Shown here one piece after another: positions 26,602 through 63,302 of a stretch of DNA of 64,000 bases. The notes beneath the pieces were generated by a model. The model saw nothing but the letters and a program-made list of their open reading frames with translations. It was not told where the DNA came from and made no database searches. Numbering within the stretch: position 1 is the stretch's first letter; each line of letters starts with the position of its first letter. Location: NCBI GenBank assembly GCA_041659765.1, contig JBAZXR010000001.1, positions 467,338 to 531,337 on the forward strand, written 5' to 3'. The DNA is from Patescibacteria group bacterium. Lineage in GTDB: Bacteria > Patescibacteriota > Patescibacteriia > UBA9934. A program made the position numbers and the translations under genes.

Positions 26602-26629
26602 TTACGAAACTCCTGAAATATGCTATATA
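26602..26629 (+). promoter_or_regulatory. Promoter TTACGA-N17-TATATA for GC-rich ORF 26688
   Basis: ttacgaaactcctgaaatatgctatata; downstream part resembles the promoter at 31697 (tataNatagaNacgc). Confidence 0.4.
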
Positions 26630-26687
26630 AATAGACGCTTTCCATCCCAGAAAGCTAAAACTCCGCGCCCCGAGGTTCCCCTTGTCC

Positions 26688-27026
26688 ATGGACCGCTCCC
26701 CGCAAGAACCCGAGATCGCCAGAACGACCACCATCGTGCTGAGTGTATTCATCGGCATCCTGTTCATCACACTCTTCATCGGCATGACCATTCTGGCCAT
26801 GACCGGATGTGAGGCTTCGCCTACGCCGATTCCGTGCGTACCGCCGGCGATCGATCTGCACGAGGCCAAGTACCTGGCGCTGTGCGACGACTACAAGACC
26901 GCTGCCGGAGTGTCAGATCCGCTCACCGGCCAGGACTGCGAGGACTTCCTCCAAATGGCCTGGACCACGAGCGACGAGACCGTCAGTCCCGACTTCGCCC
27001 TGCCCGCGGATTGCCTGTCGGAGTAA
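26688..27026 (+). CDS. Hypothetical small membrane-anchored Cys-rich protein (GC3-rich, atypical composition)
   Basis: MDRSPQEPEIARTTTIVLSVFIGILFITLFIGMTILAMTGCEASP...; about 60% GC with strong G/C at third positions; GAGG 12 nt upstream; followed by twin terminators. Confidence 0.55.
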   Translation: MDRSPQEPEIARTTTIVLSVFIGILFITLFIGMTILAMTGCEASPTPIPCVPPAIDLHEAKYLALCDDYKTAAGVSDPLTGQDCEDFLQMAWTTSDETVSPDFALPADCLSE

Positions 27027-27033
27027 CAGAAAA

Positions 27034-27096
27034 GGGAGCGCAAGCTCCCCCGTCTAAGCCCCCACGCACACGTTATGCGCGGGGGTTTTGCTTTTT
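27034..27096. terminator. Twin convergent terminators (GNRA-loop hairpin + 10-bp GC hairpin with T-run)
   Basis: gggagc-gcaa-gctccc, then cccccacgca-cacgtta-tgcgcggggg-ttttgcttttt (terminates + ORF). On the minus strand the first hairpin is followed by ttttctgtt (terminates uvrC). The uvrC stop at 27073 lies inside the second hairpin loop. Confidence 0.65.
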
Positions 27097-28425
27097 AGGA
27101 ATGCCGGAACGTTGCGCCCGCAGCACTCGATGATAACTTCCTGCAAATCTATGCGCTTCGTCGCGAACTTTTTGAAGAGTTTCCTTAAAGGCTTCGGCAA
27201 CTCTTCGCAGATCAGCGTTTGATTGGTCGAAAACTAAACGATCCTGTTTACGATCAAAGCCTTTGGCGATACCAATAATCGGCACTTTGATCTCCATCTC
27301 GTCTAGCACTTCGCGGACTCGATTCACCTGACCCTCTCCCCCGTCGATAACCAGCAAGTCGGCCCGTGGCCAGTCGTCATGCGAGAACCGGCGGCGAATA
27401 ACTTCTTCCATGGCTCGCACATCGTCAGTGCCCTCGAAGCCCTTGATTCTGAACTTTCGATATTCGTCCTTCGCCGGCTTACCATTCTCGAACACGGTCA
27501 TCGCCGCGACGTTCGACGTTCCAGAAATGTGAGCAATGTCATACGCCTCAATTCTACCGAGAGCATTAATGTGACCCGTGTCAATGTCACGCAATGGCAA
27601 CGTCGACGGTTCATCTTCACGAGTGATTAGAGCGACGTCTTGAATGTGCTCGAGCGCAAACAATTCATCACGCAATTTTGCAGCGACCTCAAACTCGCCC
27701 TGCTTCGCCGCAACCTCCATCTCCTTTCGCATCGACTTCACTATTCGATCTTTCTTGCCCTCAAAAAATAACTGGAAATTCTTGATAATTTTTCTGTACG
27801 CCGTTTTATTGATCGCGCCCGTACATACGCCGGGACACTTTCCGATTTGTGCATCGAAACACGGCCGTGGCAAGGCGGGGTTAGTAACCCCGCCTTCCGA
27901 CGCGACCGGTGGTTCACACGTCGACCACGGCAGCGCTCGGCGAATGAGATTAAGCGCGGTGCGCAATGACCGACCGCTCACATACGGTCCGTACACAGCA
28001 ATAAACTTTCTCTTGGCGAGGGCTGACAATTTCCGCTCAAACGGCTTAATGCCAAGACGCTCGAGATCGAAGCCTCTCATCAAGACTGGCCGAGGAAACT
28101 CGTCGTTAGTCAAACACAAGTACAGAAAACTTTTGTCATCGAGCAACATCACGTTGTACGGTGGCTCGTTCGCTTTAATCTGGTTCGCTTCGAGCACGAG
28201 AGCCTCGATCACCGTCGGCGTCTGGATGTAATCGATCCGTCGAATTTTGCTCACGAGCTCGCCGATCCGGGCGTCATGGGCCTTCGTAAAATACGAACCA
28301 ACACGCTTCTTCAAGCTGGTTGCTTTCCCCACGTAAAGCAGTTTTCCCCCTTCGTCATAATGAAAATACACTCCCGGGGAATCCGGAAGCTCGCCGTGAA
28401 GGATTTTGACGTACTCGGGAATCAT
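27073..28425 (-). CDS. uvrC: Excinuclease ABC subunit C (short form)
   Basis: GIY-YIG N-terminal (GVYFHYDEGGKLLYVGKATSLKKRV), UvrBC domain, RNase H-like endonuclease domain. Confidence 0.8.
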   Translation of the reverse strand: MIPEYVKILHGELPDSPGVYFHYDEGGKLLYVGKATSLKKRVGSYFTKAHDARIGELVSKIRRIDYIQTPTVIEALVLEANQIKANEPPYNVMLLDDKSFLYLCLTNDEFPRPVLMRGFDLERLGIKPFERKLSALAKRKFIAVYGPYVSGRSLRTALNLIRRALPWSTCEPPVASEGGVTNPALPRPCFDAQIGKCPGVCTGAINKTAYRKIIKNFQLFFEGKKDRIVKSMRKEMEVAAKQGEFEVAAKLRDELFALEHIQDVALITREDEPSTLPLRDIDTGHINALGRIEAYDIAHISGTSNVAAMTVFENGKPAKDEYRKFRIKGFEGTDDVRAMEEVIRRRFSHDDWPRADLLVIDGGEGQVNRVREVLDEMEIKVPIIGIAKGFDRKQDRLVFDQSNADLRRVAEAFKETLQKVRDEAHRFAGSYHRVLRAQRSGIPKKQNPRA

Positions 28426-28454
28426 GTCTTCTTTTATAGCAGTTCTGCTATCAT

Positions 28455-29167: not shown

Positions 29168-31697
29168 ACTTCAAGTATTTCTTCAGATACTGACCGGTGA
29201 AACTTTTTGGCTTGCGGGCGATGTCTTCCGGCGTACCAACAGCCACGACTGTCCCACCAAGGTCACCTCCTTCAGGACCCATGTCAATCAGCCAGTCAGC
29301 AGTTTTAATCACGTCGAGGTTATGTTCGATAACGACCATCGTATTCCCCTTATCGACTAAACGATGGAGTACTTCGAGCAACTGCTTCACATCGTCGAAG
29401 TGTAAACCCGTCGTCGGTTCATCGAGGAGGTAAAGCGTCTTCCCGGTTTGTCTGCGGGCGAGTTCGGAGGCAAGTTTTACGCGCTGAGCTTCGCCACCGG
29501 ATAAAGTAGTCGCACTCTGGCCGATTTTAATATAGCTCAAGCCGACCTCGTTCAAGGCTTTTAGCTTCGTGTCGACATCCGGAATATCCTTAAAGAACTT
29601 CGCCCCCTCTTCGACCGTCATTTCTAGCACGTCCGAGATGTTTTTATCCTTGAAAGTTACTTCGAGCGTTTCACGGTTAAAGCGCTTGCCCTTACACACT
29701 TCACAGGTCACATAGACAGTCGGCAGGAAGTGCATTTCAATTTCGATTAACCCATGTCCTTCGCAATGCTCGCAACGACCGCCGGGTACGTTGAAGCTAA
29801 AGCGACCGGGCTTGTAACCGCGGAATCTTGCCTCCTCAGTCGACGCAAACAAATCGCGAATCGGTCCCCACGCCCCCGTGTACGTCGCAGGGTTCGAACG
29901 AGGCGTACGGCCAATGGCGCCTTGGTCGATCAAAATAGCCTTGTCGATATATTCCACGCCTAGCACGGCCGTCGCTTTCCCGCCCTTATCTTTTCCGCCG
30001 TTTAATTTGTGATTAATAGTTTGATACATCACGTCATGCGCCAAGGTCGATTTGCCCGAACCCGAAACGCCGGTGACGCACACAAATTTACGCAACGGGA
30101 AATCAACATCTACATTCTTCAAGTTATTTTCGACGGCTCCACGAACCTTAATTACGCCGTGTTCTTTCGTTCGTCGTTCTGCGGGAACAGGAATCTTCAA
30201 GTCGCCACGCAGATACCCCGCCGTTCTTGATTTCTTGTCTTTGAAAATCTCGGGCGTGGTACCAATAGCGACCACCTCTCCCCCATGAACGCCGGCTCCG
30301 GGACCAATCTCGACCATGAAGTCACAGGCACGAATAGTGTCCTCGTCATGTTCAACGACGAGCACGGTATTTCCGATATCACGCAAGTTTTCAAGTGTCT
30401 TAATTAGACGCTCGTTATCTCTTTGATGCAGGCCGATGGTTGGCTCGTCGAGCACATACATCGCGCCGACCAATTTCGATCCAATCTGCGATGCAAGACG
30501 AATACGCTGTGCTTCGCCACCGGACAATGTGCCGGCCGTACGGTTGAGCGTCAGATAATGGAGGCCGACATCTAACATGAAGCTCATGCGGTTTTCGATT
30601 TCCTTCAAAATGGTCGCCGCAATTACTTGCTCACGCTCGGTCAGTTTCAATTCGAGGAAGAATTGGATGGCTCCGTCAACTGAAAGATTCGTCACGTCGA
30701 CGATCGATTTACCGCCAACGTAAACGTGCAACGCTTCTTCGCGCAGACGTTTGCCGTGACAGGTCAGACACGGCTCGTCGGAGAATAACTCGACGGTTCC
30801 CAAGCCTGAACACGCCGGACACGCGCCATACGGCGAGTTGAACGAAAACAAACGAGGTTCGATCTCGGGGAATGAGAAACCGTCATCAGGACAGCTGAAT
30901 TTACTTGAAAGCAATCGATCTCCGTTCGGTGTAAGCACCTGAACTAGGCTCTGACCGCGATCAACAGCCTGCTCGAGTGCATCGCTCAAACGCTGGCGTG
31001 CGTCAGGAAGTGCGCTCGCCGGAATAGTGTCGATCACGACTTCGATTGTATGTTGCTGATACCGCGAGAGTTCGATCTTCTCGCTCAAGCGGTGCATCTT
31101 GCCGTCGATTCTAACTTTCGCAAAACCAGAATTATAAAGATCGTAGAGCAACTGGTAGTACTCGCCCTTGCGACCGCGGACGACTGGGGCAAGAATGACG
31201 ACCTCGCGGTCGTATTTGCCCTCACCCCTACCCTCTCCCCTACGGGGAGAGGGAGAAGCGACCATTAGATCCTTCAGAACGATGTCGACCATTTCGTCGA
31301 TCGTCAGTTTTTCGATCTTACGACCACACTTAACACAGTGTGGTTCGCCGACGCGGGCGTACAAGACACGCAGGTAGTCGTAAATCTCGGTAATGGTGGC
31401 GATCGTACTCCGAGGATTCCGTGAGTGCGCTTTCTGGTCAATGGAAATCGCGGGCGAGAGACCCTCGATTTCATCTACATCTGGCTTCTGCATGCCGCCC
31501 AAAAACTGGCGAGCATACGCCGAGAGAGATTCCACATACCGGCGCTGACCTTCAGCAAAAATGGTGTCAAAAGCCAGGCTGGATTTGCCCGAACCAGAAA
31601 GGCCCGTAAAACATACGAGCTTGTTTCTGGGGATCTCAAGCGAGATATTTTTCAGGTTATGTTCCCGGGCACCTTTGATTTTTATCTTGTCTTGCAT
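29166..31697 (-). CDS. uvrA: Excinuclease ABC subunit A
   Basis: Start at [40 protein letters not shown] (compare E. coli UvrA N-terminus); two ABC modules, zinc fingers. Track start 31754 is an extension. Confidence 0.9.
31231..31253. repeat. Perfect 10-bp inverted repeat inside uvrA coding sequence
   Basis: ccctctcccc-tac-ggggagaggg; encodes the low-complexity insert [13 protein letters not shown] in UvrA. Confidence 0.6.
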
Positions 31698-31702
31698 ATA
31701 GA
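31675..31702 (+). promoter_or_regulatory. Promoter TTGATT-N16-TATAGA for ORF 31733
   Basis: ttgatttttatcttgtcttgcatataga, then AGGAGG 5 nt before ATG; overlaps the uvrA start region on the other strand. Confidence 0.4.
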
Positions 31703-31732
31703 ATAGAGACGCACACATACTTAGGAGGCAAC

Positions 31733-32116
31733 ATGGGCGGCGGAGGACTAACAAGCGTCTACGGTGAACCGATTACAGAACCCGAGGACTCACTCCCGCG
31801 AGATCTCTCGACCGTGACCGAGACGGCCGACCCGGGTGGCGACTTTGTGGGCCGGGCAGAGGCGCCGGCACACAAGTCCTACGGGCCGTGGTGGGAGCAG
31901 CTCAAGCCGCACAGAAACGCGATCAAGAAGCCGCGGCACCAAGAGGAGTTTGACGAACTCATGACCATCTGCGTCAAGTCAGAAGAACCAGGCATGGGTA
32001 GTCTGCGCGGTGCGTGCGTCCGCCAGCTGCGTATCTTCTACGCTAAATATCTGCACGACGAACAGGCCAATCTGGAATCTACCCTCAGCGAACTTCCGGA
32101 AAGCCTCACGGCGTGA
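31733..32116 (+). CDS. Hypothetical soluble protein (127 aa; GC3-rich atypical composition)
   Basis: Fills the 350-bp gap between uvrA and uvrB on the opposite strand; AGGAGGcaacATG; hairpin + T7 follows at about 32120-32162, inside the uvrB 3' end. Confidence 0.55.
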
Positions 32117-34163
32117 CCTTCTTCCGAGCTCCCCGGTTCTTACCGCGGGGGCTCGTACTTTTTTTAGCAGCTAATTCTTTTTCTAACTCGACTAGTTCGT
32201 CACGTAACAACGCAGCTGTTTCAAAGAGCAAATTCTCGGCCGCCCGTTTCATGTCATCTTTCTTGTCCCGGATAGCTTCTTCGAGTTCTTCTGGGCTAGC
32301 CGTCATTTCAATCTTCAGAATCTTCTTCACCTTTTCTTCATCGATTCCATCCGCGCCGAGCATCTTTCTGATATCGCCGATTTTTTTCTCGATGCTCTTC
32401 GGCGTAATGCCGTGGTCAGCGTTGTACTTGAGCTGAATCTTTCGACGTCTATCTGTTTCAGCGAGTGCTCGATTGAGTGAGCCGGTCATGTGATCGGCAT
32501 AGAGCAGGACAAGTCCGTTCACGTTACGAGCCGCACGACCGATTGTTTGAATGAGCGACGTTTCGCTACGCAGGAACCCTTCTTTGTCCGCGTCGAGAAT
32601 ACCGATCAGCGACACCTCCGGCAGGTCGAGTCCTTCACGCAACAAGTTCACGCCAACCAACACGTCATACACGCCTTTACGCAAGTCCGACAAAATGGTG
32701 ATGCGTTCGAGTGTTTCGATGTCGGAGTGGAGATAGGCGACGTTCATGCCATCCTCCTTCAAATAACCCGCCAGGTCCTCGGCCATCTTTTTGGTTAACG
32801 TCGTAATCAACGCTCGTTCACCCTCCGCGACTCGCACTTTGATGCGCGCCATGATGTCTTTCACCTGTCCGGGATAGTCGTCAGTGGCGGTTACCGGCAA
32901 AATAATGGTCTGCGGATCAACGAGTCCAGTAGGACGAATGATCTGTTCGACAATGGCGTTTGACGTCTCGCGTTCGTACGGGCCAGGCGTGGCGGACACA
33001 TAAAGGGTCTGTCCCGTGCGCTCAATAAATTCATCAAACTTCAGTGGGCGGTTGTCCTTAGCGCTCGGCAAGCGGAAGCCGTGATCGACGAGCGTTTGTT
33101 TACGCGCTTGGTCACCGGCGAACATGCCGCCAATCTGCGGCAGCGTGACGTGGGATTCATCAATGATGGTCAGAAAGTCTTTCGGGAAGTACGAGATTAG
33201 ACTCGACGGCGGTTCGCCCACAGTGCGACCGTCAAAGTGACGCGAATAGTTTTCAATGCCGTTACAGTATCCAATATTTTTGATCATCTCCAAATCATAC
33301 TTTGTCCGGCGCGACAAACGCTCATACTCAAGTACTTTTCCTTCAGCGTCGAGTTCTTTCAGGCGTTCGGCGAGTTCATGCTCGATGGCCCGGTACGCTC
33401 GCTCTCGCTCATCGAGTGAAGCCATGAAGTGTTTGGCGGGAAAAATCCAAGTGTCTTTCAGCTTCTCGTCGATCTCTCGCGTAATGTGATTTAATCTAAA
33501 AATTTCCGCAATCTTAGAACCGTCGAAAACTATTCTGAACAAGATTTCCTCGTTCACCGGCATGATTTCCACCACATCGCCGCGCGCACGGAAATGGCCT
33601 CGCGTGAGGTCAGTGTTAGTGCGTGTGAACTGCATATCAATCAGCTTGCGCATCATCTCGTCGCGCTCAACTATGTCACCCTCGATCAAATGCAATACTT
33701 CTTTCTCATATGCTTCCGGCGAACCTAAACCATAAATGCAGGACACCGAAGCGACGATGATTACATCGCGTCGGGTCAAGAGCGCCGAGGTAGCTGCGTG
33801 CCGTAGACGATCAATCTCCTCGTTAATCGTCGCTTCTTTTTCAATGTAGGTATCCGTCCGCGGCATGTACGCCTCTGGCTGGTAGTAATCGTAATACGAA
33901 ACAAAATACTCAACAGCGTTGTTTGGAAAAAACTCTCTAAACTCCTGACACAACTGCGCGGCCAACGTCTTGTTATGGGCAATGACGAGCGTAGGGCGCT
34001 GAACATTCTGAATCACGTTCGCCATGGTGAACGTTTTGCCGGAACCCGTAACTCCAAGAAGAGTCTGTCTATCCAGACCTTTATTGAGTCCGTCGGTCAA
34101 CAACTCAATCGCCTTTGGCTGATCTCCGGCTGGTTTGTACTCAGATTTAAGATCGAACTTCAT
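32106..34163 (-). CDS. uvrB: Excinuclease ABC subunit B
   Basis: Start at [22 protein letters not shown] (compare E. coli [21 protein letters not shown]); helicase motifs [12 protein letters not shown]; C-terminal UvrB/UvrC interaction helix. Track start 34322 is an extension. Confidence 0.9.
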
Positions 34164-34277: not shown

Positions 34278-34312
34278 AAAAAAAACGGCTCTTCCCGGGT
34301 GGGCAGAAGCCG
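34278..34312 (-). terminator. Intrinsic terminator after gene 34334..35023
   Basis: Minus strand acggcttctgcccacccgggaagagccg followed by tttttttt, 22 nt after stop. Confidence 0.55.
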
Positions 34313-34333
34313 TCACTGGCACAGAACTCCCAG

Positions 34334-35023
34334 CTAACTGTCCGCCACCCGCTCCTTCAGGTACTTCCGGAATATCGCCGAAACCTCTCGTCGCTCCCGC
34401 GGAGCGAGCAGGGGCAGAAAATCTCGGGGAGCATATTCCTTCTCTCGTTCGACTGACCCGAGGAAAAGAATCTGGTAGCTAAGGTCGGACGTTCCATTCT
34501 TTGGAACGGTCACCGCGTAATCACCGATCCCGCGGATCCGTAGAATGCGAACCGTCTTTGATTCATCGTCGCCGAGAGCGAGATGTAGGCCGTTCGCCAT
34601 ACCCACCTCCTCTTCAGGAGCGAACTGTACCTTGAGGGTGCCGTGATTGGACACAGTTTTCTGTATTTTCAGACCACGCTCCTGGCTAGCGCGCAGCAGA
34701 TCGGCATAGGTAATGAGCTGCTTCCCGTAGGCCGATACCCGCTTGCCCACAACGTGAACCAGGGCAATAAGCACCACCACGCCCAGAACACCAGTGCAGG
34801 CCACCAAGAAGGTCCGAAAGGCATACGGCGCCGAATAGACCTGCCAGAACACCAAGATATCGCCGACGAGCACGATCAAGAAAATAGCAACGAAGCTCAA
34901 CAGGGAAAGCGCGGCAAAGATCACCGCTTCAGTCCATGACGGAACACGAATGTCGTATTTTGACTTCTTCACGTTTCCTCCAAAAGGCCTGCTTATATTA
35001 GCGAAAAAAATAAGAATTGTCAA
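34334..35023 (-). CDS. Membrane protein with two TM helices and C-terminal soluble domain (possibly bacterial PH-domain / DUF304-like)
   Basis: TMs [28 protein letters not shown] and [21 protein letters not shown]; family call is weak. Confidence 0.45.
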
Positions 35024-35132: not shown

Positions 35133-35167
35133 TGGCCACGTTTTTTGGATCAACTCGGAGGTACTCC

Positions 35168-35662
35168 ATGGAAATGACCGATGCGCTCGCCGCAGTCTTT
35201 GACCCGCATTACTCAAACCCCCGGCTGCAGGCGCTCCGCGACCTCATGCGGGATCCGGCGTGGGCGGCGATCATCACGGATCACGAAGTGACCCGGATCA
35301 CCGGAAACCCCAAGGACTACGTGGAAGTGACCATCCTGACCGCGAGCGTGCTCCTCAAGTCCCCCATGGCGGGCGTGGCGCTCGAGCGACTGCAGGAATA
35401 CCTGACGTCGTCCACGACATTTAACCAATCGATGGTCAGGCTCCGAGTGATCACAGTTGCCGGCGACACCCTTTGCTTGCGCAGGAACTTCATACGTGAG
35501 CTCAGTGAACTCATTGACGTACTCGAAAAAACGCTCGTAAGCGTCGCCCTGAGCTGGCCTCGGGAGAATGAGAAAGACGCTGAAACCATCCTCGACGGCC
35601 GTGCACTCGACGCCTTCCGCAGGCGGTGCATCAAGGAAGGTCTCGAGAGCGTAGGCGCGTAA
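35168..35662 (+). CDS. Hypothetical protein (164 aa; GC3-rich atypical composition)
   Basis: Start at MEMTDALAAVFDPHYSNPRLQALRD with GGAGGtactccATG; track ORF 35027 is an extension. Own promoter and terminator. Confidence 0.55.
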   Translation: MEMTDALAAVFDPHYSNPRLQALRDLMRDPAWAAIITDHEVTRITGNPKDYVEVTILTASVLLKSPMAGVALERLQEYLTSSTTFNQSMVRLRVITVAGDTLCLRRNFIRELSELIDVLEKTLVSVALSWPRENEKDAETILDGRALDAFRRRCIKEGLESVGA

Positions 35663-35685: not shown

Positions 35686-35724
35686 ATCCCCGCTTACCGT
35701 AAAAAGTAAGACGGGGATTCTTTT
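35686..35724. terminator. Intrinsic terminator (atccccgcttac-cgtaaaaa-gtaagacggggat + ttctttt)
   Basis: Follows stop of ORF 35168; overlaps the NMNAT gene stop on the other strand. Confidence 0.55.
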
Positions 35725-37054: not shown

Positions 37055-37085
37055 AAAAAAATCCAACCTTGCGGTTGGATTTTTT
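37055..37085. terminator. Bidirectional terminator after tRNA-Gln
   Basis: aaaaaaa-atccaacc-ttgc-ggttggat-ttttt. Confidence 0.6.
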
Positions 37086-37159
37086 GGTTCGGGGACTTGG
37101 AATCGAACCAAGATTCATGGCTTCAAAGGCCACTGTCCTGCCGTTAGACGATCCCCGAG
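37085..37159 (-). tRNA. tRNA-Gln (anticodon TTG), CCA encoded
   Basis: rc: TCGGGGA TC GTCTAACGGCAGGAC A GTGGC CTTTGAA GCCAT GAAT CTTGG TTCGATT CCAAG TCCCCGA A CCA; 7-bp acceptor, T-loop TTCGATT, anticodon loop CUUUGAA. Confidence 0.85.
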
Positions 37160-38891: not shown

Positions 38892-38966
38892 GCAGGAGTA
38901 GTTCAGTGGTAGAACATTTGCTTCCCAAGCAAAGGGTCGCGGGTTCGAGTCCCGTCTCCTGCTCCA
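38892..38966 (+). tRNA. tRNA-Gly (anticodon CCC), CCA encoded
   Basis: GCAGGAG...TTTGC TTCCCAA GCAAA...GGTTCGAGTCC...CTCCTGC T CCA. Confidence 0.85.
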
Positions 38967-38970
38967 ATAC

Positions 38971-39046
38971 GCCGATTTAGCTCAGCTGGTAGAGCAATGC
39001 TTTCGTAAAGCAGAGGTCCCGAGTTCAAATCTCGGAATCGGCTCCA
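38971..39046 (+). tRNA. tRNA-Thr (anticodon CGT), CCA encoded
   Basis: GCCGATT TAGCTCAGCTGGTAGAGC...TGCT TTCGTAA AGCA...GAGTTCAAATCTC GGAATCGGC T CCA. Confidence 0.8.
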
Positions 39047-40210: not shown

Positions 40211-41478
40211 ACGCTCTTATGATACCCCATCTCACCTAATAGCTCACGCGCTACTTTTCTGTCATCCCAAGCAATTTTTTTGCCTCCAGCCACCGCCATG
40301 ACTGGTTCTGAACCTTTGCCCGTCAAAAGCACTACGTCGCCTGCCTCTGCCAAGCTGAAAGCTTTTTTAATCGCTTCTTTGCGGTCGTCGACCAAAAACA
40401 AATCGGTTCCCTCAACCTTCCCCGCTTCTTGTGCACCGCGAGCTACGGCCTCGATAATTTCACGCGGATCCTCGTCGTATGGATCCTCATTGGTCACAAT
40501 AACGACAGCCTCATACTCACCAGCAAGCTTGCCAATAATCGGCCGTCGAGCAATATCTCTCCCTCCCCCAGCTGAACCGTGAACGCCAATCAATCGCGAA
40601 CCTTTCACCGCGTCGAACAGCGCCTCAAGCGCATACGGCTCGTAGGCGTAATCGACAATGACCATAAACGGCTGACCTTGATCGATCTTCTCAAAACGCC
40701 CAGCGAGTGGTCGCAGTAAACTCGCAGCGTCCATCACGCGCTTCAACGGGAAACCAAGGGACTCGACCGTCGCAATTGCCGCGAGTGCGTTCTTCTGTTC
40801 AAACTCGGCTCGCAGTGGCAGCTTGTCGACAGGATGTGCAACGTCACCGACACGAATCAGTTTATCGGCAAAGCTAAACGACACGCGCCTGTCAGCCGGA
40901 AAACTTGCGAAATACGCCGCGTGCTCGTCATCACTATTCACCACGATCGTTTTCGGCACGTCATGCCCCTCTAGTCTCTTCTTTCGTCGAGCGGTCAAAT
41001 GTTCGAACAATTTCCCTTTCGCCTTTCTGTAATTATCAAAACCGCCATGCGCCTCTATGTGCTCTGGGGTGAGGTTCGTAAACACTGCGACATCGTAATT
41101 GATGCCCAAATGTCGAAATTGGTCGAGTCCCTGGCTACTCGTTTCGATAATGGCGTACGAACATTTGGCCTTTACCATCTCGCCCAAAATATTCTGCAAA
41201 TAAAACCGTCCCGGCATGGTCATCTTCATCTTATTCTCAACTTCTTTTCCAGCAATGGAAAACCCCGCCGTCGATGTATAACCAACCGTCTCACCGAGAT
41301 TCGTCAAAATCTGGGCGATGAAATTAACGGTCGAGCTCTTCCCGTTCGTCCCCGTTACACCGATGACGATCAGCTTCTCCGACGGATGCCGATAAACCGC
41401 CTCTGCCGTTTTAGCGAGGACGTAGTGGTAGGCTTGAAGCGCTGGTCGAGGAATCATTTTCTTGAGCTGGTGCAGCAT
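40207..41478 (-). CDS. murE: Mur ligase family protein, MurE-like (short N-terminal domain)
   Basis: P-loop VIGVTGTNGKSST, MTMPGRF (TTPe-like), ETSSQGL, FTNLTPEHIEAHG, KAKGKLF; adjacent to murD. P-loop only 40 aa from the N-terminus, so the MurE vs MurF/MurT assignment is tentative. Confidence 0.55.
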   Translation of the reverse strand: MLHQLKKMIPRPALQAYHYVLAKTAEAVYRHPSEKLIVIGVTGTNGKSSTVNFIAQILTNLGETVGYTSTAGFSIAGKEVENKMKMTMPGRFYLQNILGEMVKAKCSYAIIETSSQGLDQFRHLGINYDVAVFTNLTPEHIEAHGGFDNYRKAKGKLFEHLTARRKKRLEGHDVPKTIVVNSDDEHAAYFASFPADRRVSFSFADKLIRVGDVAHPVDKLPLRAEFEQKNALAAIATVESLGFPLKRVMDAASLLRPLAGRFEKIDQGQPFMVIVDYAYEPYALEALFDAVKGSRLIGVHGSAGGGRDIARRPIIGKLAGEYEAVVIVTNEDPYDEDPREIIEAVARGAQEAGKVEGTDLFLVDDRKEAIKKAFSLAEAGDVVLLTGKGSEPVMAVAGGKKIAWDDRKVARELLGEMGYHKSV

Positions 41479-41522
41479 AGATCGTTTCGAAGTTCCTCCG
41501 ACTTTCTATTTTCTACTTCTAA

Positions 41523-42980
41523 CTACAGATTTCTTACCTCTTCTCTGAACTGCTCGCCGCGATCGAATTCGTTCTTGAAAATATTAAAGCTAGCTGCGCC
41601 TGGAGACAGAAGAACGATGTCGCCGGTTTCCGCAAGTTTACGAGATTTCTGAACCGCCTCTTTCATATTGGCTGCGTGCTCGATCGGTACTTTGCCGAGT
41701 AGCCCCTTCTCGATGATATCTGAAGCATCGCCAGGGAACAGAACGACAGCCTTACAGCCCTTAGCAGCCTCAGCGATCATTTCTTCGTACGGCAATTTCT
41801 TATCTACACCGCCAGCAATGAGAATAGCTTTCTTGTCCTTGCCATAAACTTTTAGCGCAGCAACAACCGCAGTTGGCGCGGTGGCCGCCGTGTCATTGAT
41901 GTACATAATCTCGTCGACCTCACGGACGAGCTCCTGACGGTCAGGAACCCCCTTGAACTCCTTGAGGACTTTCGCCACACCTTCGACCGTAACCCCGCGC
42001 AACATAGCGGCACAAGCAGCCGAGAGAACATTTTCTAGGTTGTGTTCGCCCTGAAGTGCGACGTCTTTATAGGCACAGATGGGAGTTTCGACGCCGTCTT
42101 TACGGAAAATAACAGCCTCGCCCTTCAAGAAACAGCCGTTAGCTTTTCCGTCATCAGTCTTCGAGAACCAGTACAGTTTGCCCTTTACGCGTGGTTCCAT
42201 CGAACGCACTAAATCGTGATCGCGATTTAACACAGTGTACTGCTCGGGAGTTTGGTACTCGAAAATAATCTCCTTGGACTTTTGATAGTCTTCGAAAGAC
42301 GCGTAACGGTTCAAGTGATCCGGAAAGACGTTTGTGAGCACCGCGATGTCTGGGCCTTTCTTCATCTCGGCGAAGGCTCCCGGCAAACTCTCTAGCAACC
42401 ATGATGAAAGCTCGAGCACGACTGGTCGCTTAATGTCAGAGACAAGTAGATCATCCAGAAACTCGAGTGGCGATACCTTCACGTTACCCGCAATAATCGT
42501 CTCAGGATCCATGGTCTTCACCATCTCGCCCAAGAGCAACGTGGTGGTAGTCTTCCCCTTCGTGCCGGTAACCGCGATGATCTCATGCGGGTAGTAGCGG
42601 AAGAACAAGCTCACGTCGGATTCAATGTGAATGTTTTGTGCTTTGGCTTGCTGCACAAATTCGCTCTCACTAGGAACTCCAGGATTCTGCACGACACAGT
42701 CGACGCCGGTGAAATCTTCCTTTCTGTGCTCGCCCAAAATAAAGAGCGGCTGATAAATGGTGCGATCTGGGTAGAGTTCCTTGTATTTATTAAACCATTC
42801 CATGACCAGGTCCACGGACTCCTTCAGCTCCTTCTCGTCCTTCAAGTCCGTGATAACCGTCTGCGCCTCATGACGCATCAGCCACTTAGCGGTCCCAAGC
42901 CCGCTGCCCTGCTTGTATCGACCCAACCCCATAACCGTTACAATTGCGTCCTTGAAACTAGCGATTTTGCTCAGATCCAT
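41523..42980 (-). CDS. murD: UDP-N-acetylmuramoylalanine--D-glutamate ligase
   Basis: VMGLGRYKQGSG Rossmann, QNPGVP, P-loop IAVTGTKGKTTTT, AGNVKVSP (GNIG equivalent). Confidence 0.8.
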   Translation of the reverse strand: MDLSKIASFKDAIVTVMGLGRYKQGSGLGTAKWLMRHEAQTVITDLKDEKELKESVDLVMEWFNKYKELYPDRTIYQPLFILGEHRKEDFTGVDCVVQNPGVPSESEFVQQAKAQNIHIESDVSLFFRYYPHEIIAVTGTKGKTTTTLLLGEMVKTMDPETIIAGNVKVSPLEFLDDLLVSDIKRPVVLELSSWLLESLPGAFAEMKKGPDIAVLTNVFPDHLNRYASFEDYQKSKEIIFEYQTPEQYTVLNRDHDLVRSMEPRVKGKLYWFSKTDDGKANGCFLKGEAVIFRKDGVETPICAYKDVALQGEHNLENVLSAACAAMLRGVTVEGVAKVLKEFKGVPDRQELVREVDEIMYINDTAATAPTAVVAALKVYGKDKKAILIAGGVDKKLPYEEMIAEAAKGCKAVVLFPGDASDIIEKGLLGKVPIEHAANMKEAVQKSRKLAETGDIVLLSPGAASFNIFKNEFDRGEQFREEVRNL

Positions 42981-46726: not shown

Positions 46727-46745
46727 CAGGAACATCTCGCGACAA

Positions 46746-47435: not shown

Positions 47436-47447
47436 CAACTCGAACAT

Positions 47448-47482: not shown

Positions 47483-47524
47483 ACCACATTTTGCTATCGT
47501 TCTCTGTTCCTTCATGGAGGTTAC

Positions 47525-48016
47525 ATGCCAGATGTTTTGCCATTCACTCAGAATCGCGCACGAAGGTTGATCGTTCCCGATACAAGGTCGAGCGAATGCA
47601 TCGCCCTGCCTCCACCGACCCACTCGAGTCCCCCAGAAGAGAGGAAGATCGCTTACCGTACGTCCGAAACGATGCGTCTGCAGATCCTCCGGGATCACAA
47701 GTTCGTGGAAGACGTTCAGGCCTTGCTCACCGGCGAACGGTGGCTTCTCGAGCCAACGTCAACCGCTATCTTCAACCACCATCACAAGTACCAGATCGAT
47801 GCCAAACCACAACGACAGTCGTGGCGAAAACGTGGTGACATGAAGTCGAGCGATGCGGGGCGTTACTGTGTGGGTTGCCGGTGGCAAGTAGCGGATCATC
47901 TGGCTCCCCATCTGCTTGCTATCGTTCCCTCCATCTCCCGCAAGCGAGCCGAGGCGTTCATCAACCACGGCCACACGATCGTTGAGCGACGGGGCCAATA
48001 CTCAACTCGCCGCTAA
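47525..48016 (+). CDS. Hypothetical His/Cys-rich protein (163 aa, GC3-rich)
   Basis: Start at MPDVLPFTQNRARRL with GGAGGttacATG; the leader tgctatcgttctctgttccttcatggaggttac is about 80% identical to the leader of ORF 46187. Confidence 0.5.
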   Translation: MPDVLPFTQNRARRLIVPDTRSSECIALPPPTHSSPPEERKIAYRTSETMRLQILRDHKFVEDVQALLTGERWLLEPTSTAIFNHHHKYQIDAKPQRQSWRKRGDMKSSDAGRYCVGCRWQVADHLAPHLLAIVPSISRKRAEAFINHGHTIVERRGQYSTRR

Positions 48017-48036
48017 AACCATCAGTTCCCGTCAGG

Positions 48037-48065
48037 CCCTGCACCACGTGCGGGGTTCTTTTTTT
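48037..48065. terminator. Intrinsic terminator ccctgcac-cacg-tgcgggg + ttcttttttt (sequence-related to 46746 terminator)
   Basis: Overlaps the stop codon (48064) of the convergent minus-strand gene. Confidence 0.7.
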
Positions 48066-48756
48066 AGTACCTTCCGCACTGAACTTCGTTGCCGTTGGAA
48101 ATTATTTCGGCAAAGGGACCCGTCGATAAACTGATGCGGAAGAAACGGCTTGAAAGTTTAAAATCTATGCCAGTCGGTGTGTCTGTCCAGTAGGTCACGA
48201 TCCTGCCCGTGCGGGCGTCTACAATGGCGAAGCCTTCATGTTTCTGAGCGTCGTCAGACGGCATGCCCCAGCGAGACACCACGTAAGCGCCGGCGAAGTT
48301 TACCCCGCGAGCGACGTCTTTGGTGATGGCGGTGCGATACCTTGCGGCGTCAGGCCATGTCGAGAAATCCGGCCGGTGCGGGCGGCCTTTGTAGAATTCT
48401 GTGGCGGGATAGTCAGCAAACTCGCCTTGCACGCCGTAGCCGCACTCGGGAGCGGGATCGGTGGCGGGAGCAGTCGAGTAGTCGGAGGGAGTGACGAGAG
48501 GAACGGGAGAGGGCGTAGGTGGGCGTGTGTCTTGTGTCTCAAAAACAACGAGTTTGCCACCGGGAAAGACGCAAGTAGGTTTTTGAGCATTCCATAGCCA
48601 CTCCCCGCCCTGCTCTTCGCAGGATGACCGATAGGAGGCCGAGGTTGGTTCGCCGCCGGTGAAAAATTTAAAAAGAAGAACGAAAGCAATGAGGCCGAAA
48701 AAGACGGTCGGCGACAAAAGTTTAACCCAATGTTTGTCCGGCATTTCCCAGGTCAT
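48064..48756 (-). CDS. Hypothetical membrane-anchored protein (GC-rich)
   Basis: TM VFFGLIAFVLLFKFF, Pro/Thr-rich linker, Cys pairs; likely start MPDKHWVKLL. Confidence 0.5.
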   Translation of the reverse strand: MTWEMPDKHWVKLLSPTVFFGLIAFVLLFKFFTGGEPTSASYRSSCEEQGGEWLWNAQKPTCVFPGGKLVVFETQDTRPPTPSPVPLVTPSDYSTAPATDPAPECGYGVQGEFADYPATEFYKGRPHRPDFSTWPDAARYRTAITKDVARGVNFAGAYVVSRWGMPSDDAQKHEGFAIVDARTGRIVTYWTDTPTGIDFKLSSRFFRISLSTGPFAEIISNGNEVQCGRY

Positions 48757-52672: not shown

Positions 52673-52945
52673 ATGGCACATAAACTTGCCCAAGGTTCTA
52701 CAAGAAACGGCCGAGATTCGCAACCCAAGCAGCTTGGCGTTAAGCGTTCTGATGGCACCACCGTCAAAACCGGCGAAATTTTGATCCGCCAGCGCGGTAC
52801 CAAAATCCACCCTGGAAAGAACGTGAAAGTCGGTACCGACTTCACTATCTACGCCATGAAGGACGGCGTAGTAAAGTTCATGAAGAAGCAATCCCCGAAC
52901 TTCGTGGGTGCGCTCAAACTCCGCACTTACGTGTCCGTTGTCTAA
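52673..52945 (+). CDS. rpmA: 50S ribosomal protein L27
   Basis: [51 protein letters not shown] matches the bL27 consensus. Confidence 0.9.
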
Positions 52946-52957
52946 ATACTCCAAACC

Positions 52958-52987
52958 CAAAAACGAGCCCGAAAGGGCTCGTTTTTG
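52958..52987. terminator. Bidirectional terminator aaaaa-cgagccc-gaaa-gggctcg-ttttt
   Basis: Perfect 7-bp stem, GNRA loop, symmetric A/T runs. Confidence 0.7.
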
Positions 52988-52993
52988 TATCGC

Positions 52994-53075
52994 GGGCGGG
53001 AATAATACTGTCGCGATGAGGCTGCTTAGTCGGTAATCCGACGACAGCCGAAGAGCAACAGTATTATTCCCGCCC
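52994..53075. repeat. 82-bp composite palindrome (18-bp perfect outer arms gggcgggaataatactgt / acagtattattcccgccc with nested inner hairpins)
   Basis: The right arm encodes the last codons (LTGRE*) of pyrG; inner ggctgc..gcagcc and gtcgg-taatc-cgac stems. Confidence 0.6.
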
Positions 53076-59956: not shown

Positions 59957-60006
59957 TCCCCTTTTAAAAGAATTGGGGAATTGGTACCCTCTCCCCGGAG
60001 GTTTCC

Positions 60007-60438
60007 ATGTATCCCATTGTGCGTTGTGACAATTCTCCGCATACCGTGCGCAGGTATCTACCGGAAGTGAACAGGCTGTGTGCTCGCATTAGTCCGAACC
60101 ATGAAGAAGTCACGTTTAGTGCGCTCATGGAAAGCGCGCTCAAGAGCTGTCTTCTTTTCTGCTGGGATCAAGATTCAAGCCTGGCGGGCATGGGCATGCT
60201 GAGCGCCGTGCCGAGCTTCCATCCGTACGGCATCATCGACTACGTGGTCGTCGACGAACGTCACGAGGGCAAAGGCGTTGGGAAAATGATCATGCACGCG
60301 CTCATCAACGACGCGCGAGCGCTCAAGCTCCATCACATCGATCTCACGAGCAAGCCCTCTCGGGAACGGGCGAACAAGCTCTACCCTAAGCTCGGGTTCG
60401 AACTCCGTGAAACGAACGTCTACCGGCTCAAACTCTGA
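60007..60438 (+). CDS. GNAT-family N-acetyltransferase (GC3-rich)
   Basis: VVDERHEGKGVGKMIMHALINDAR (acetyl-CoA binding Q/RxxGxG/A motif); GGAGGtttccATG. Confidence 0.7.
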   Translation: MYPIVRCDNSPHTVRRYLPEVNRLCARISPNHEEVTFSALMESALKSCLLFCWDQDSSLAGMGMLSAVPSFHPYGIIDYVVVDERHEGKGVGKMIMHALINDARALKLHHIDLTSKPSRERANKLYPKLGFELRETNVYRLKL

Positions 60439-60452
60439 GCTCAAACAAAAAT

Positions 60453-60494
60453 GCCCGCCAGTCCGGAACACGGACGGCGGGCTATTATTTTTAT
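60453..60494. terminator. Intrinsic terminator gcccgcc-agtccggaacacggac-ggcgggc + tattatttttat
   Basis: 7-bp GC stem with nested gtccg..cggac; between convergent GNAT and nucleotidyltransferase genes. Confidence 0.6.
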
Positions 60495-61585: not shown

Positions 61586-61626
61586 AGCAAAGAAAAGCGC
61601 CCGGCGTCAACGAAGACGACGGGCGT
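61586..61626 (-). terminator. Intrinsic terminator after IMPase-family gene
   Basis: Minus strand cgcccgtcgtc-ttcgtt-gacgccgggcg followed by cttttctttgc. Confidence 0.5.
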
Positions 61627-61640
61627 TCGAGACTAAGGGC

Positions 61641-62507
61641 CTACCTGTTCAATCGTTCGAGCAGCTGCTCGGCGATCCGCATGTTGGCGGCCAAGATGCA
61701 GGGAGTCTGCGTCTTGAAGTCGTACGTGCGCGTGCCGAGGTCCTTCCCGTCCCAGTCCACCGCCACGCCGCCCGAACCTTTTACGAGCGCGTACCCGGCG
61801 CCCAGCTCATGCTGTTTCTGGCGATCGCAGACGAACGCCACAGCCTGACCGCTCGCCACGGAAGCCATTTCGTAGGCTGCGGAGCCAGGCGAACGAAGCC
61901 AGCCTTTCTCCCCTGCAAACGCACGGAAGAGCTTCTCCCGATTCTCCGGGTAGTACATCTCGCCGATGACGTTCATGCGCCCGAGATCGAGCGTGCCGAC
62001 GTCCATAGTCGATCCGAACGCGTGGTACGACTTGCCGCTACGAAGTCGAGTCGAGTATCGAGACTCTTTAGAGCGCCAAGTGGCGGTCCAGCTATCACGC
62101 AACGTACCACGCAAGTCGAGCACGGCGACGTCAGTGATGTCCGCAAAGGTAGCTCCCGCCTTCTTGTTCAACACTGTCACGACGGCGGTGACGGGGAATC
62201 CCGTCATGCCACCGGCGTGCAGATAGTTCAAGGATCCGTCGAGCGGATCCACCGTAACCCACGTGTGCGAAGGATCATCCGTGTCCTTGTCCGGCAATCC
62301 CTCCACGCTGATGCACGCTCCGGGAAAAACTTTCCGGAACTGCTCGGCCAGATACTGACCGATGACCTTGTCTGCAGTGAGCTCGGTGTCATTCTGCAGA
62401 TCACCGAATGCCCCGCCTGCTCGGGAAATGTCTTTTCCTGTTTTCAATTCGCGCAAACGCTTCTTCGCCAACAGAAGTGTCTGTAGCAATACCGCTGATG
62501 ATTTCAT
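61641..62507 (-). CDS. Inositol monophosphatase family protein (IMPase/CysQ-like), GC-rich
   Basis: WVTVDPLDGSLNY and later WDGKDLG / GAGYALV motifs of the FIG/IMPase superfamily. Confidence 0.7.
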   Translation of the reverse strand: MKSSAVLLQTLLLAKKRLRELKTGKDISRAGGAFGDLQNDTELTADKVIGQYLAEQFRKVFPGACISVEGLPDKDTDDPSHTWVTVDPLDGSLNYLHAGGMTGFPVTAVVTVLNKKAGATFADITDVAVLDLRGTLRDSWTATWRSKESRYSTRLRSGKSYHAFGSTMDVGTLDLGRMNVIGEMYYPENREKLFRAFAGEKGWLRSPGSAAYEMASVASGQAVAFVCDRQKQHELGAGYALVKGSGGVAVDWDGKDLGTRTYDFKTQTPCILAANMRIAEQLLERLNR

Positions 62508-62539
62508 GAAACCTCCGCCGGGAATGTGCCATATTTCTC

Positions 62540-62579
62540 TACAAATGAAAAGCGCCCGACGAATCGTATCGTCAGGCGC
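62540..62579 (-). terminator. Intrinsic terminator after NUDIX gene 62604..63302
   Basis: Minus strand gcgcctgacga-tacgat-tcgtcgggcgc followed by ttttcattt. Confidence 0.55.
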
Positions 62580-62603
62580 CTGAAGTTGTGTAGCGTGCCG
62601 CGG

Positions 62604-63302
62604 CTAGCTCTTCAGCATGCCCCAGAGCCGGCCGACGCCAGCGACGGTGAACATGTCGCCGAGCATGATGGCCTCGAGCGCCGGGATGAAATGGCAGCCC
62701 GTGATCTGCTCGGCCGCACGGTTCTCCTTGTCCACGGTGACGGCGGACTTCCGGAACTTCACCAGACCGTTCTTGGTGACGAGAAGGCCGGGCGACACTT
62801 CTACCGTAGAGAACTTCACGCCCTCATCGACCTGGACGGTTTCGAAGAAAGCGCTATTCGGGTTTGTGGGCTTGCCCGGGAGGAGCCGAAGGCTTCCCAC
62901 GAACTTGCCGACTTCTTCCGCGAGCTCACGCTCGGCACCGACCCAGTGGGGCTCTCCGGGCTTCAGGAACCCACGCGGGACGTTCAACACCTTCCCGCCC
63001 TGGTTCGGCCTGTCCTGCTCCACCACGCCGATCAGCAAGTTGCCGTCAACCGTTGCGTACGGAACGATGACTGCTCCGCCGCCGCCGTTCTCGTGGAACG
63101 CCCACGAGTCGAAGTTCCCGCCCGGGTTCTTCCCGTACGCGAGCGTACCGTATTTCGGATTCGTCAGCTCCATGTAGGCGAGCTGGCTCAAATCCGCTTC
63201 GGTTCCGTCCCGGAGATGGCCCTTGGCTTTCCAACCCACATTCACCCCGTCCACAATCGGACGAATCAACGTGGGAAACTCATTCGTATCAGGATCACTC
63301 AT
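62604..63302 (-). CDS. NUDIX hydrolase (ADP-ribose pyrophosphatase-like), GC-rich
   Basis: Nudix box GFLKPGEPHWVGAERELAEEVG. Confidence 0.75.
   Translation of the reverse strand: MSDPDTNEFPTLIRPIVDGVNVGWKAKGHLRDGTEADLSQLAYMELTNPKYGTLAYGKNPGGNFDSWAFHENGGGGAVIVPYATVDGNLLIGVVEQDRPNQGGKVLNVPRGFLKPGEPHWVGAERELAEEVGKFVGSLRLLPGKPTNPNSAFFETVQVDEGVKFSTVEVSPGLLVTKNGLVKFRKSAVTVDKENRAAEQITGCHFIPALEAIMLGDMFTVAGVGRLWGMLKS

Follow-up and report, generated by a model that had tools for sequence, protein, structure and literature searches.

The 64-kb stretch analysed here (contig JBAZXR010000001.1 of assembly GCA_041659765.1, positions 467,338 to 531,337 of the forward strand; "the window", or W, denotes this whole stretch) holds two classes of protein-coding gene. 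Alongside a housekeeping backbone lie about a dozen small stand-alone genes that are led by a Shine–Dalgarno (SD) motif, rich in G and C at third codon positions (GC3) and followed by a GC-rich hairpin, and this SD-led, GC3-rich, hairpin-terminated class is confirmed as distinct from the backbone within the window. A preliminary description had read these genes as horizontally acquired from a higher-GC donor. Comparison with related genomes indicates instead that they are native and vertically inherited, not recent imports, a judgement of which full tree reconciliation forms no part.

Two gene classes within the window

The window has a GC content of 51.5% and carries 65 genes. Pfam annotation outlines a housekeeping backbone, predominantly on the minus strand, that contains type IV pilus genes, uvrD, mraZ–mraW, uvrC, uvrA, uvrB, an NMNAT-like gene, ftsEX, mur ligases, a P-type ATPase, murG, ftsW, mraY, pyrG, L9, glycosyltransferases and rml-type sugar-nucleotide genes. 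Rfam matches in the window are four tRNAs and nothing else, and no rRNA occurs in the window or in the loci fetched for comparison. Judged by its sequence, the source genome is a metagenome-assembled genome (MAG) of the Patescibacteria (candidate phyla radiation, CPR) near Candidatus Uhrbacteria. When genomes were scanned with uvrA, 11 loci were recovered from MAGs of Candidatus Uhrbacteria and of unclassified Patescibacteria, with UvrA identities of 71–94%; three of these records carry the label uncultured Gammaproteobacteria. Most of the 11 keep the order NMNAT-uvrB-uvrA-uvrC-mraZ-mraW. Loci of relatives are numbered in the style L001–L052. Curated gene coordinates and an orthology-anchored analysis of gaps were used; models based on length and second-position GC (GC2) chose wrong-frame open reading frames (ORFs) opposite GC-rich genes.

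The two classes separate clearly by composition. GC3 is 0.553 ± 0.046 in a backbone reference set of 48 genes (maximum 0.643) and 0.734 ± 0.060 in the core GC3-rich set of 11, the H genes (Mann–Whitney p = 3.6e-7), with T3 falling from 0.27 to 0.13 and C3 and G3 rising from 0.28 to 0.40 and from 0.28 to 0.34, respectively. The same division appears at the translation start. An SD core (GGAGG, GAGGT or AGGAG at a proper distance) precedes 12 of the 14 genes with a GC3 of at least 0.64, compared with 2 of the 51 others (Fisher p = 2e-9), which bears out the earlier remark that most of the GC-rich genes have a near-consensus SD and that backbone genes often lack one. Overall, 14 of the 65 genes have such a core, mostly with a spacer of 3–5 nt, and nearly all backbone starts lack one. 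The spacer is 3–5 nt in 10 of the 11 core H genes and 11 nt in the gene at 26688. Searching the window for GGAGG ahead of a start codon returns essentially the GC3-rich genes alone, plus a 52-aa ORF at 9719–9877.

The ORFs that had been noted as GC-rich are confirmed as GC3-rich, apart from one marginal case: 26688–27026 (H26688, 0.81), 31733–32116 (H31733, 0.70), 35168–35662 (H35168, 0.76), 46187–46726 (DUF218, 0.82), 47013–47435 (H47013, 0.75), 47525–48016 (H47525, 0.64), 60007–60438 (GNAT, 0.69), 61641–62507 (IMPase, 0.72) and 62604–63302 (NUDIX, 0.81). To these we add 9719–9877 (0.74), 45577–45927 (H45577, 0.64) and 34334–34972 (g34334, 0.65), which brings the class to 12 units including g34334. 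The marginal case is the gene at 48064–48756 on the minus strand, which encodes a membrane-anchored protein, has a GC3 of 0.61 and lacks GGAGG upstream; its orthologue in the nearest relative (L018; 61% identical) has a GC3 of 0.52, and the gene is better grouped with the backbone.

A GC hairpin (−11 to −25 kcal/mol) with a T-rich tail directly follows the stop codon in all 11 core genes, as had been described for most of the GC-rich ORFs, and five of the six strongest terminator-like sites between 45 and 64 kb are H-class sites. In four cases, uvrC, uvrB, NMNAT and the 48064 gene, the hairpin overlaps the 3′ end of the convergent backbone gene, again as first described. Of the 12 units, nine lie antisense to the neighbouring genes; the three others, NUDIX, IMPase and g34334, are co-directional with theirs.

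Start contexts and promoters

Backbone and H genes also differ in the base that precedes the start codon. T occupies position −1 in 72% of 54 SD-less backbone starts (G in 2%, A in 6%), often as ..TCT|ATG or ..CCT|ATG, whereas C occupies it in 82% of the 11 SD-led H starts. T(−1) also precedes many SD-less genes in L013, L015, L017 and L052, including those for S2, EF-Ts, L31 and RF-1, and may act as an extended codon–anticodon context for SD-independent initiation.

An extended −10 box lies merely 5–12 nt ahead of the start in several operon-first backbone genes, and this short distance suggests that their mRNAs are leaderless or have very short leaders. SD-led genes with a recognizable −10 box use the same box type with a longer leader. 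Of the proposed promoter hexamers, individual extended −10 boxes are present (TGCTATCAT, TGCTATCGT), but a general excess of sigma-70 −35/−10 matches was not seen (12 versus 14.9 expected, and 18 versus 11.3 ± 3.5). A search for 5′ untranslated region (UTR) hairpins that sequester the SD gave folding energies no different from those of shuffled sequences (z −1.7 to +2.3), the exception being the long H47013 leader.

Homologues in related genomes

Positional or syntenic homologues of H31733, H35168, H45577, H47013, H47525, DUF218, NUDIX and IMPase are present in related Uhrbacteria MAGs, most with an SD and a GC3 excess. The gap between uvrB and uvrA, which holds H31733 in the window, measures about 500–625 bp in 10 of the 11 relatives and contains an antisense ORF of the H31733 family in seven. 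These ORFs mostly have a GGAGG-type SD and a GC3 above the local backbone; they share G-x-GG and PEPS motifs with H31733 and form blastp clusters within sub-clades. Among the closest genomes (W, L006 and L010) the gap ORFs are homologues detectable by blastp, and in additional relatives the same gaps hold ORFs that are SD-led and raised in GC3. The similarity of the gap proteins follows uvrB identity (Spearman 0.62, p = 5e-4).

Two further regions show the same persistence. In L001 (a JGI contig, 48% GC), NUDIX and IMPase lie beside the same rml genes; the NUDIX orthologue is 67% identical, carries an AGGAGG SD and has a GC3 of 0.77 where the backbone is at about 0.48, and 23 of the 25 bases before the IMPase start codon are identical between L001 and the window. 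The ATPase|MurG region of L018 contains homologues of H45577, H47525, H47013, DUF218 and the 48064 gene, which are 34–68% identical (backbone 76–95%) and shuffled in order and orientation. The four H-gene homologues have GC3 values of 0.59–0.68, and three of the four carry an SD.

This retention is difficult to reconcile with import. Synonymous divergence between the closest genomes (pS) is 0.64–0.77, so that synonymous sites are saturated, and both sides keep the GC3 excess; a one-off import should have ameliorated over such a distance, which leaves the transfer reading unsupported. The units evolve under weaker constraint than the backbone, with ratios of nonsynonymous to synonymous divergence (dN/dS) of 0.26–0.67 and 0.01–0.10, respectively. 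All named NUDIX and DUF218 homologues belong to the Patescibacteria/Parcubacteria (CPR), and the best DUF218 match with a known genome lies on the contig of the nearest relative. The outcome that the preliminary description had itself named as refuting transfer, orthologues in place and with best hits in the same lineage, is the one obtained for the genes that could be tested, most of whose homologues have the same SD and GC3 excess.

Mobile elements were sought separately. Pfam annotation of the window contains no integrase. Scans of viral contigs, PHROGs, PADLOC, and BLAST against phages and plasmids returned nothing but tRNA matching phages and plasmids, and a phage, plasmid or defence origin of the units was rejected. 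A genomic island at tRNA-Lys was likewise rejected, as the 45.5–48.7 kb cluster beside this tRNA has no att-like or tRNA-derived direct repeat.

Extent of the class across CPR lineages

The preliminary description had offered a distinct accessory gene class as its alternative, and this is the part that was borne out, since the class reaches far beyond the present genome. Across 31 non-redundant loci, SD-led ORFs exceed the local backbone in GC3 by a mean of 0.116 and SD-less ORFs by 0.012 (p = 1.6e-10). Among 21 DUF218 loci on metagenome contigs, 15 have a DUF218 gene whose GC3 lies more than 0.1 above the median of its flanks; the excess averages 0.21, and GC3 reaches 0.58–0.79 in genomes with flanks at 0.26–0.41; an SD-like GGAGG or GAGG and a stable hairpin accompany it in most loci.

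The contrast can be very large in AT-rich genomes. In L019/L035, distant Parcubacteria of 42% GC with a backbone GC3 of 0.28–0.40, the DUF218 homologue has a GC3 of 0.69, a GAGGT SD and a GC hairpin, and a neighbouring gene reaches 0.85. Its codon usage is nearly inverted relative to the backbone (AAG 0.84 versus 0.19, GAG 0.78 versus 0.23), and the GC-rich domain ends sharply at the transcript ends, with an AT-rich promoter region. In mid-GC Uhrbacteria (L013, L015 and L017), the loci around rpsB include genes of unknown function that are SD-led and hairpin-terminated and reach a GC3 of 0.87, compared with a bulk of 0.55–0.61. At the other extreme, a 59%-GC Uhrbacteria locus (L052) has a GC3 of about 0.8 in nearly all genes (backbone 0.77–0.86) and no clear contrast; its backbone genes are mostly SD-less, whereas the corresponding H slot is occupied by a gene with GGAGGG and a terminator.

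Between prfA and rpsB, L013 (4792–8262) and L017 (6409–9785) carry four tandem paralogous lipoprotein-like genes with SD-like motifs and GC3 of 0.61–0.87. The encoded proteins combine a signal peptide with a Cys lipobox, a Gly/Ser/Thr-rich linker and a Cys-rich C-terminal domain, and look like a variable surface-protein family of Uhrbacteria.

Maintenance of GC-richness and its possible causes

GC-richness in the H class spans all three codon positions, and GC3 stays near 0.6–0.85 while the backbone of relatives ranges from 0.26 to 0.8. Polarized substitution counts in L023, L024 and L025, taken at third positions of identical amino acids, give 13 changes from weak (W; A or T) to strong (S; G or C) at 26 W sites and 23 S>W changes at 99 S sites, which implies an equilibrium GC3 of about 0.68, with the backbone there at 0.38. 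The three-taxon counts in L013, L015 and L017, too saturated to decide, imply equilibria of 0.57 for the backbone, 0.64 for ribosomal protein genes and 0.75 for H genes (42 sites). The counts in L023, L024 and L025 suggest that GC-richness is actively maintained rather than decaying. The trait can nevertheless be lost, as low-GC3 members of the DUF218 tree are nested among high-GC3 ones; the L028 branch shows 32 S>W changes against 2 W>S.

We favour, at what we judge to be an even chance, the reading that the units form a native, vertically inherited class of self-contained, monocistronic, SD-led genes kept GC-rich through their mode of expression. A unit begins with a host-type extended −10 box (TGnTAnnnT) where a promoter is recognizable, a leader of a few tens of nucleotides and GGAGG(T) 3–5 nt before the start, and continues with an ORF of G/C-ending codons and a GC hairpin with a T-run. 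Where the hairpin also lies at the 3′ end of a backbone gene, it probably terminates both convergent transcripts. The leadered monocistronic mRNA would recruit 30S subunits de novo through its strong SD, and it is this mode of recruitment that would make an SD necessary. Backbone genes, by contrast, lie in long, tightly packed or overlapping operons and are probably initiated without an SD, through leaderless, coupled or 70S re-initiation, as suggested by this packing together with the −10 boxes at 5–12 nt and the U at −1 in 72% of starts. Products of the units are mostly lineage-specific and weakly constrained, comprising membrane-anchored or lipoprotein-like proteins, orphans and small enzymes. 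The most likely cause of their GC-richness, we infer, is selection linked to the expression mode, which could act through efficient decoding of NNC and NNG codons, through stable structured mRNAs of strongly translated stand-alone transcripts, or through both.

The suggestion that the class is highly expressed holds in part. In mid-GC relatives the genes for S2, L31 and EF-Ts have a GC3 of 0.71–0.81 against a bulk of 0.55–0.61, and the H-gene codon fractions (TAC 0.88, TTC 0.79, ATC 0.78) are shifted as strongly as in the ribosomal protein genes of relatives. Those genes, however, carry no SD, and their preferred codons differ. Several observations weigh against selection through expression. 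The codon shifts of H genes and of relatives' ribosomal protein genes correlate overall (r = 0.62) but not significantly within G/C-ending codons (0.30), and H genes raise G-ending four-fold codons (GCG, GTG, CGG and CTG) that ribosomal protein genes avoid; with these opposite preferences, simple translational selection is probably insufficient. Among DUF218 orthologues, first- and second-position GC rises together with GC3 (r = 0.90 for GC1 and 0.60 for GC2), which points to a pressure on the whole gene and not on codon choice alone. Neither L9 (GC3 0.58, the sole ribosomal protein gene in the window) nor the pilin gene is GC3-rich, L016 (42%-GC Uhrbacteria) has a small excess and ribosomal protein genes that are not GC3-rich, and the DUF218 copies of L028, L030 and L037 stand at backbone GC3, so that the trait is labile. 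Leaderless initiation is deduced solely from the spacing of the −10 box, the substitution counts come from few sites at high divergence, where parsimony is biased, and all within-genome statistics are drawn from 64 kb of an 897-kb genome.

The covariation of all three codon positions also fits GC-biased fixation without selection. Here the units would lie in recombination hot spots between highly conserved housekeeping genes, frequent gene conversion or locally different repair would raise their GC at every codon position, and SD and terminator would merely be the normal signals of stand-alone genes. C- and G-ending codons both rise, the units are the variable content of gaps between proteins that are 85–95% identical, cassettes in the ATPase|MurG hot spot are ordered and oriented differently in the window and in L018, and the losses on the L028 branch agree with such a process. 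The effects generally ascribed to biased gene conversion in bacteria are, however, far smaller than the excess seen here (up to 0.38 to 0.78). The GC-rich domain also ends sharply at transcript ends, and NUDIX and IMPase are GC-rich although they lie within a co-directional sugar-nucleotide cluster, and we regard biased fixation as unlikely. Recurrent exchange of portable cassettes within the CPR is another explanation that we consider improbable, to a similar degree. Units from a shared accessory pool of about 60% GC would pass between CPR lineages and displace resident alleles through conserved flanks; they would carry universal signals (their own promoter, canonical SD and factor-independent terminator) and would never fully ameliorate. 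The DUF218 homologues, at roughly 0.50–0.61 GC in recipients of 37–52% GC, fit this, as do the GC1, GC2 and GC3 of H genes, which resemble genes of a roughly 60%-GC genome (59%-GC Uhrbacteria exist), the changing neighbourhoods of NUDIX and DUF218 between lineages, and the divergence of H orthologues (30–68% identical, backbone 85–95%). Yet similarity tracks the backbone phylogeny, distant genomes yielded no homologue above 75% identity, the promoter regions are AT-rich and of host type, and annotation and searches of the window gave neither an integrase or att repeat nor a link to phages or plasmids. The backbone of L052, the one high-GC Uhrbacteria locus compared, is mostly SD-less, which argues that the SD is not simply a donor's normal signal.

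Recent acquisition from a higher-GC donor outside the lineage, for instance the high-GC host of an episymbiont, would account for the atypical composition, the self-contained signals and the tRNA-Lys inside the 45.5–48.7 kb cluster. We consider it very improbable. Positional homologues in relatives mostly keep the SD and the GC3 excess across saturated synonymous divergence, named homologues are all from the CPR, H35168 has one other cluster among 1.84 billion, and neither a tRNA-derived direct repeat nor an integrase was found in the annotated window.

We venture as a speculative generalization, more doubtful than not by a wide measure, that many Parcubacteria run two translation channels per cell, one SD-less for housekeeping and one SD-led for accessory genes. 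The housekeeping channel would combine the lack of an SD with U at −1, A/U-tolerant codons and leaderless or coupled initiation. The second would combine an SD with G/C-ending codons, read largely by C34 and G34 tRNAs, and serve stand-alone accessory and surface genes, which selection would hold GC-rich regardless of genome GC. Such a regulon could be controlled through the availability of the anti-SD or of a tRNA subset, for example in a switch between host-attached and free states.

The tRNA genes of the window are divided by strand. Those with C34, Gly-CCC and Thr-CGT, decode G-ending codons and occur together on the plus strand (38892–39046), and those with U34, Gln-TTG (37085–37158) and Lys-TTT (45989–46063), lie on the minus strand, that of the backbone. 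This split may bear on a separate tRNA subset for G/C-ending codons, or may be coincidence.

Comparison with known systems

In the Bacteroidota, few genes keep a strong SD. The window resembles such SD-poor genomes, those of Parcubacteria included, in that most genes lack an SD and a minority have a near-consensus one. Among Parcubacteria 16S sequences, only 48% contain the anti-SD motif, and bS21 is often absent (Tsurumaki et al. 2022, PMC9297842). The SD-led minority described here differs in that its genes form a class by composition as well, with high GC at every codon position, are monocistronic and hairpin-terminated, and are accessory and fast-evolving, not ribosomal or regulatory. The NNC preference in two-fold pyrimidine-ending codons recalls the codon bias of highly expressed genes, and the genes for S2, L31 and EF-Ts in mid-GC relatives lean the same way. 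H genes, unlike these SD-less ribosomal protein genes, also raise G-ending four-fold codons, GC1 and GC2, and their excess is very large in AT-rich genomes, whereas the ribosomal protein genes of L016, the sole AT-rich relative checked, are unbiased.

Deviant GC and codon usage, and the position of one cluster beside a tRNA gene, are features of genomic islands and alien genes. Unlike these, the units keep their positions from one relative to the next, vary in similarity along with the backbone phylogeny and have their homologues within the lineage; the excess outlasts synonymous saturation and no mobility genes were found in the annotated window. There is also a formal likeness to prophage morons, single genes with their own promoter, terminator and different GC that are inserted between phage genes. 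The units are likewise one-gene modules of deviant GC, with their own promoter and terminator, amid conserved gene order. They differ in their chromosomal housekeeping context (uvrA/B/C, mur, ftsW, pyrG and rml-type genes) and vertical inheritance, and no PHROG or viral-contig relatives were found. Integron cassettes differ from the units. The hairpins share only generic CCCCG/CGGGG stems followed by T-runs (no formal attC model was run), the units are dispersed, several with their own −10 boxes, and the annotated genes include no integrase.

The literature that was searched holds no description of an SD/GC3 two-class architecture in the CPR. The finding joins two known themes, an SD-poor genome and intragenomic codon heterogeneity, and is unusual in strength and breadth. 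Within one genome here, two gene sets are opposed in their initiation signals and −1 context and differ in codon usage, which offers a handle on translation initiation in CPR bacteria with reduced ribosomes, in which the anti-SD is often reported missing. Composition-based detection of transfer in CPR genomes would systematically flag a native gene class as foreign, and gene prediction trained on backbone genes would assign wrong starts to H-type genes or overlook them. As a small, fast-evolving set that includes membrane-anchored and lipoprotein-like proteins, the class supplies natural candidates for host interaction in episymbionts. A GC3 near 0.7 held in genomes of GC3 0.3 also provides an unusually clean test of selection against biased conversion in bacterial composition.

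Organization of the individual units

The smallest unit (9709–9925, plus strand) has the SD GGAGGT at 9709–9714, the ORF at 9719–9877 (52 aa) and a hairpin at 9892–9916 (−11.5 kcal/mol) followed by T8; its product has no Pfam, PHROG or PADLOC match. H26688 (26672–27097, plus strand) has a weak SD, GAGGT, at 26672–26676, the ORF at 26688–27026 and hairpins at 27032–27051 and 27056–27088, the second of which overlaps the uvrC stop at 27073. It encodes a membrane-anchored or lipoprotein-like protein with a four-Cys C-terminal domain, and L005 and L012 have weak positional homologues in their uvrC|mraZ gap.

The H31733 unit (31675–32165, plus strand) combines the promoter-like TTGATT-18-TAGAAT (31675–31704), the SD AGGAGG (31723–31728), the ORF at 31733–32116 and a hairpin at 32125–32155 within the 3′ tail of uvrB. 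The longest uvrA ORF starts at TTG 31754, overlapping the start of H31733; alignment with L010 puts the real start at ATG 31697 (MQDKIKIKG...). The two genes form a 35-bp divergent gap in which the promoter of each overlaps the 5′ end of the other (31695–31754). On the minus strand, g34334 (34284–35023) has the promoter TTGACA-17-TAATAT at 35023–34995, the SD GGAGG at 34977–34981, a GTG start at 34972, an ORF extending to 34334 and a hairpin at 34284–34314; it has no Pfam match. In L002 the same slot, the NMNAT|uvrB gap, holds an SD-led ORF with a GC3 of 0.72, a likeness of position only.

H35168 (35157–35727, plus strand) has the SD GGAGGT at 35157–35162, an ORF at 35168–35662 that encodes a 164-aa orphan, and a hairpin at 35686–35718 whose T-rich tail extends into the NMNAT stop. 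Its orthologue in L010 lies in the same place, with 34% identity, a GC3 of 0.82 and a GAGGT SD. Among 1.84 billion representatives the family has two clusters in all, one besides its own, and a metagenome scan with H35168 for close strains found none.

Four units lie on the plus strand between the ATPase and MurG genes. H45577 (45568–45950) has the SD GGAGGT at 45568–45573, the ORF at 45577–45927 and a hairpin at 45915–45940; in L018 the orthologue, at 34% identity, is preceded by a GGGAGGT SD. The DUF218 unit (46151–46773) has an extended −10 box, TGCTATCAT, at 46151–46159, the SD GGAGGT at 46176–46181, a TTG start, the ORF at 46187–46726 (Pfam DUF218 at 8e-15) and a hairpin at 46745–46765 followed by T7. 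H47013 (46772–47480) follows with the promoter TTGACA-17-TAATAT (46772–46800), a leader at 46806–47012, a weak SD, GGAGAG, the ORF at 47013–47435 and a hairpin at 47447–47470; the L018 orthologue is 56% identical. Its leader of about 210 nt shares long blocks with L018 (about 9190–9460) despite the saturation of synonymous sites, and contains a GNRA hairpin (GCTCGCAGCCGGAAACGGTAGCGAGC). In the predicted fold (z −2.9) a 5′ CUCC tract pairs with the weak SD, which makes the leader a candidate cis-regulatory RNA, one without an Rfam match.

H47525 (47492–48065) has an extended −10 box, TGCTATCGT, at 47492–47500, the SD GGAGGT at 47516–47521, the ORF at 47525–48016 and a hairpin at 48036–48056 whose T-run extends over the stop codon of the 48064 gene. 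In L018 its homologue, a protein of 315 aa with 45% identity, is encoded on the opposite strand in a different order. The terminators of DUF218 and H47525 (46746–46773 and 48037–48064) are 86% identical over 28 nt (CCCYGCACCAMGTGCGGGGT followed by a T-run), and their 5′ UTRs are alike (TGCTATC..TTCCTT.CA.GGAGGT), which hints that regulatory flanks were duplicated or exchanged between these neighbouring units.

The GNAT unit (59982–60491, plus strand) has the SD GGAGGT at 59997–60002, the ORF at 60007–60438 (Acetyltransf_1 at 2e-15) and a hairpin at 60453–60482. On the minus strand, the IMPase-family unit (61598–62516) has the SD GGAGGT at 62516–62511, the ORF at 62507–61641 (Inositol_P at 1.8e-16) and a hairpin at 61625–61598, and the NUDIX unit (62551–63311) has the SD AGGAGGT at 63312–63306, the ORF at 63302–62604 and a hairpin at 62580–62551. 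NUDIX and IMPase stay adjacent in distant CPR genomes, in tandem or divergent orientation (window 61641–63302, L001 9289–10955, L015 8982–10699), while their neighbourhood changes from rml genes to rpsB-tsf-gap; in L001 the IMPase gene is split (241 and 47 aa). Adjacency kept in changing surroundings suggests that the two form a functional pair.

Other features of the window and of L018 were noted in passing. A (CTT)6–7 tract stands directly before the start of a 271-aa gene at 19958–20773 (tract at 20774–20798) and is kept in L002 (20622–20646), where the protein is just 40% identical; the tract may serve translation as a pyrimidine-rich signal or may be prone to slippage. L018 has two insertions that are absent from the window: L27 and a Wzy_C gene between nifU and pyrG (15308–17097; window 52845–53064), and a PIN-domain gene with a small partner between two mur ligases (2863–3446; window 41478–41523). 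The PIN pair is rich in A and T at third codon positions (GC3 0.38–0.40), the reverse of the H class.

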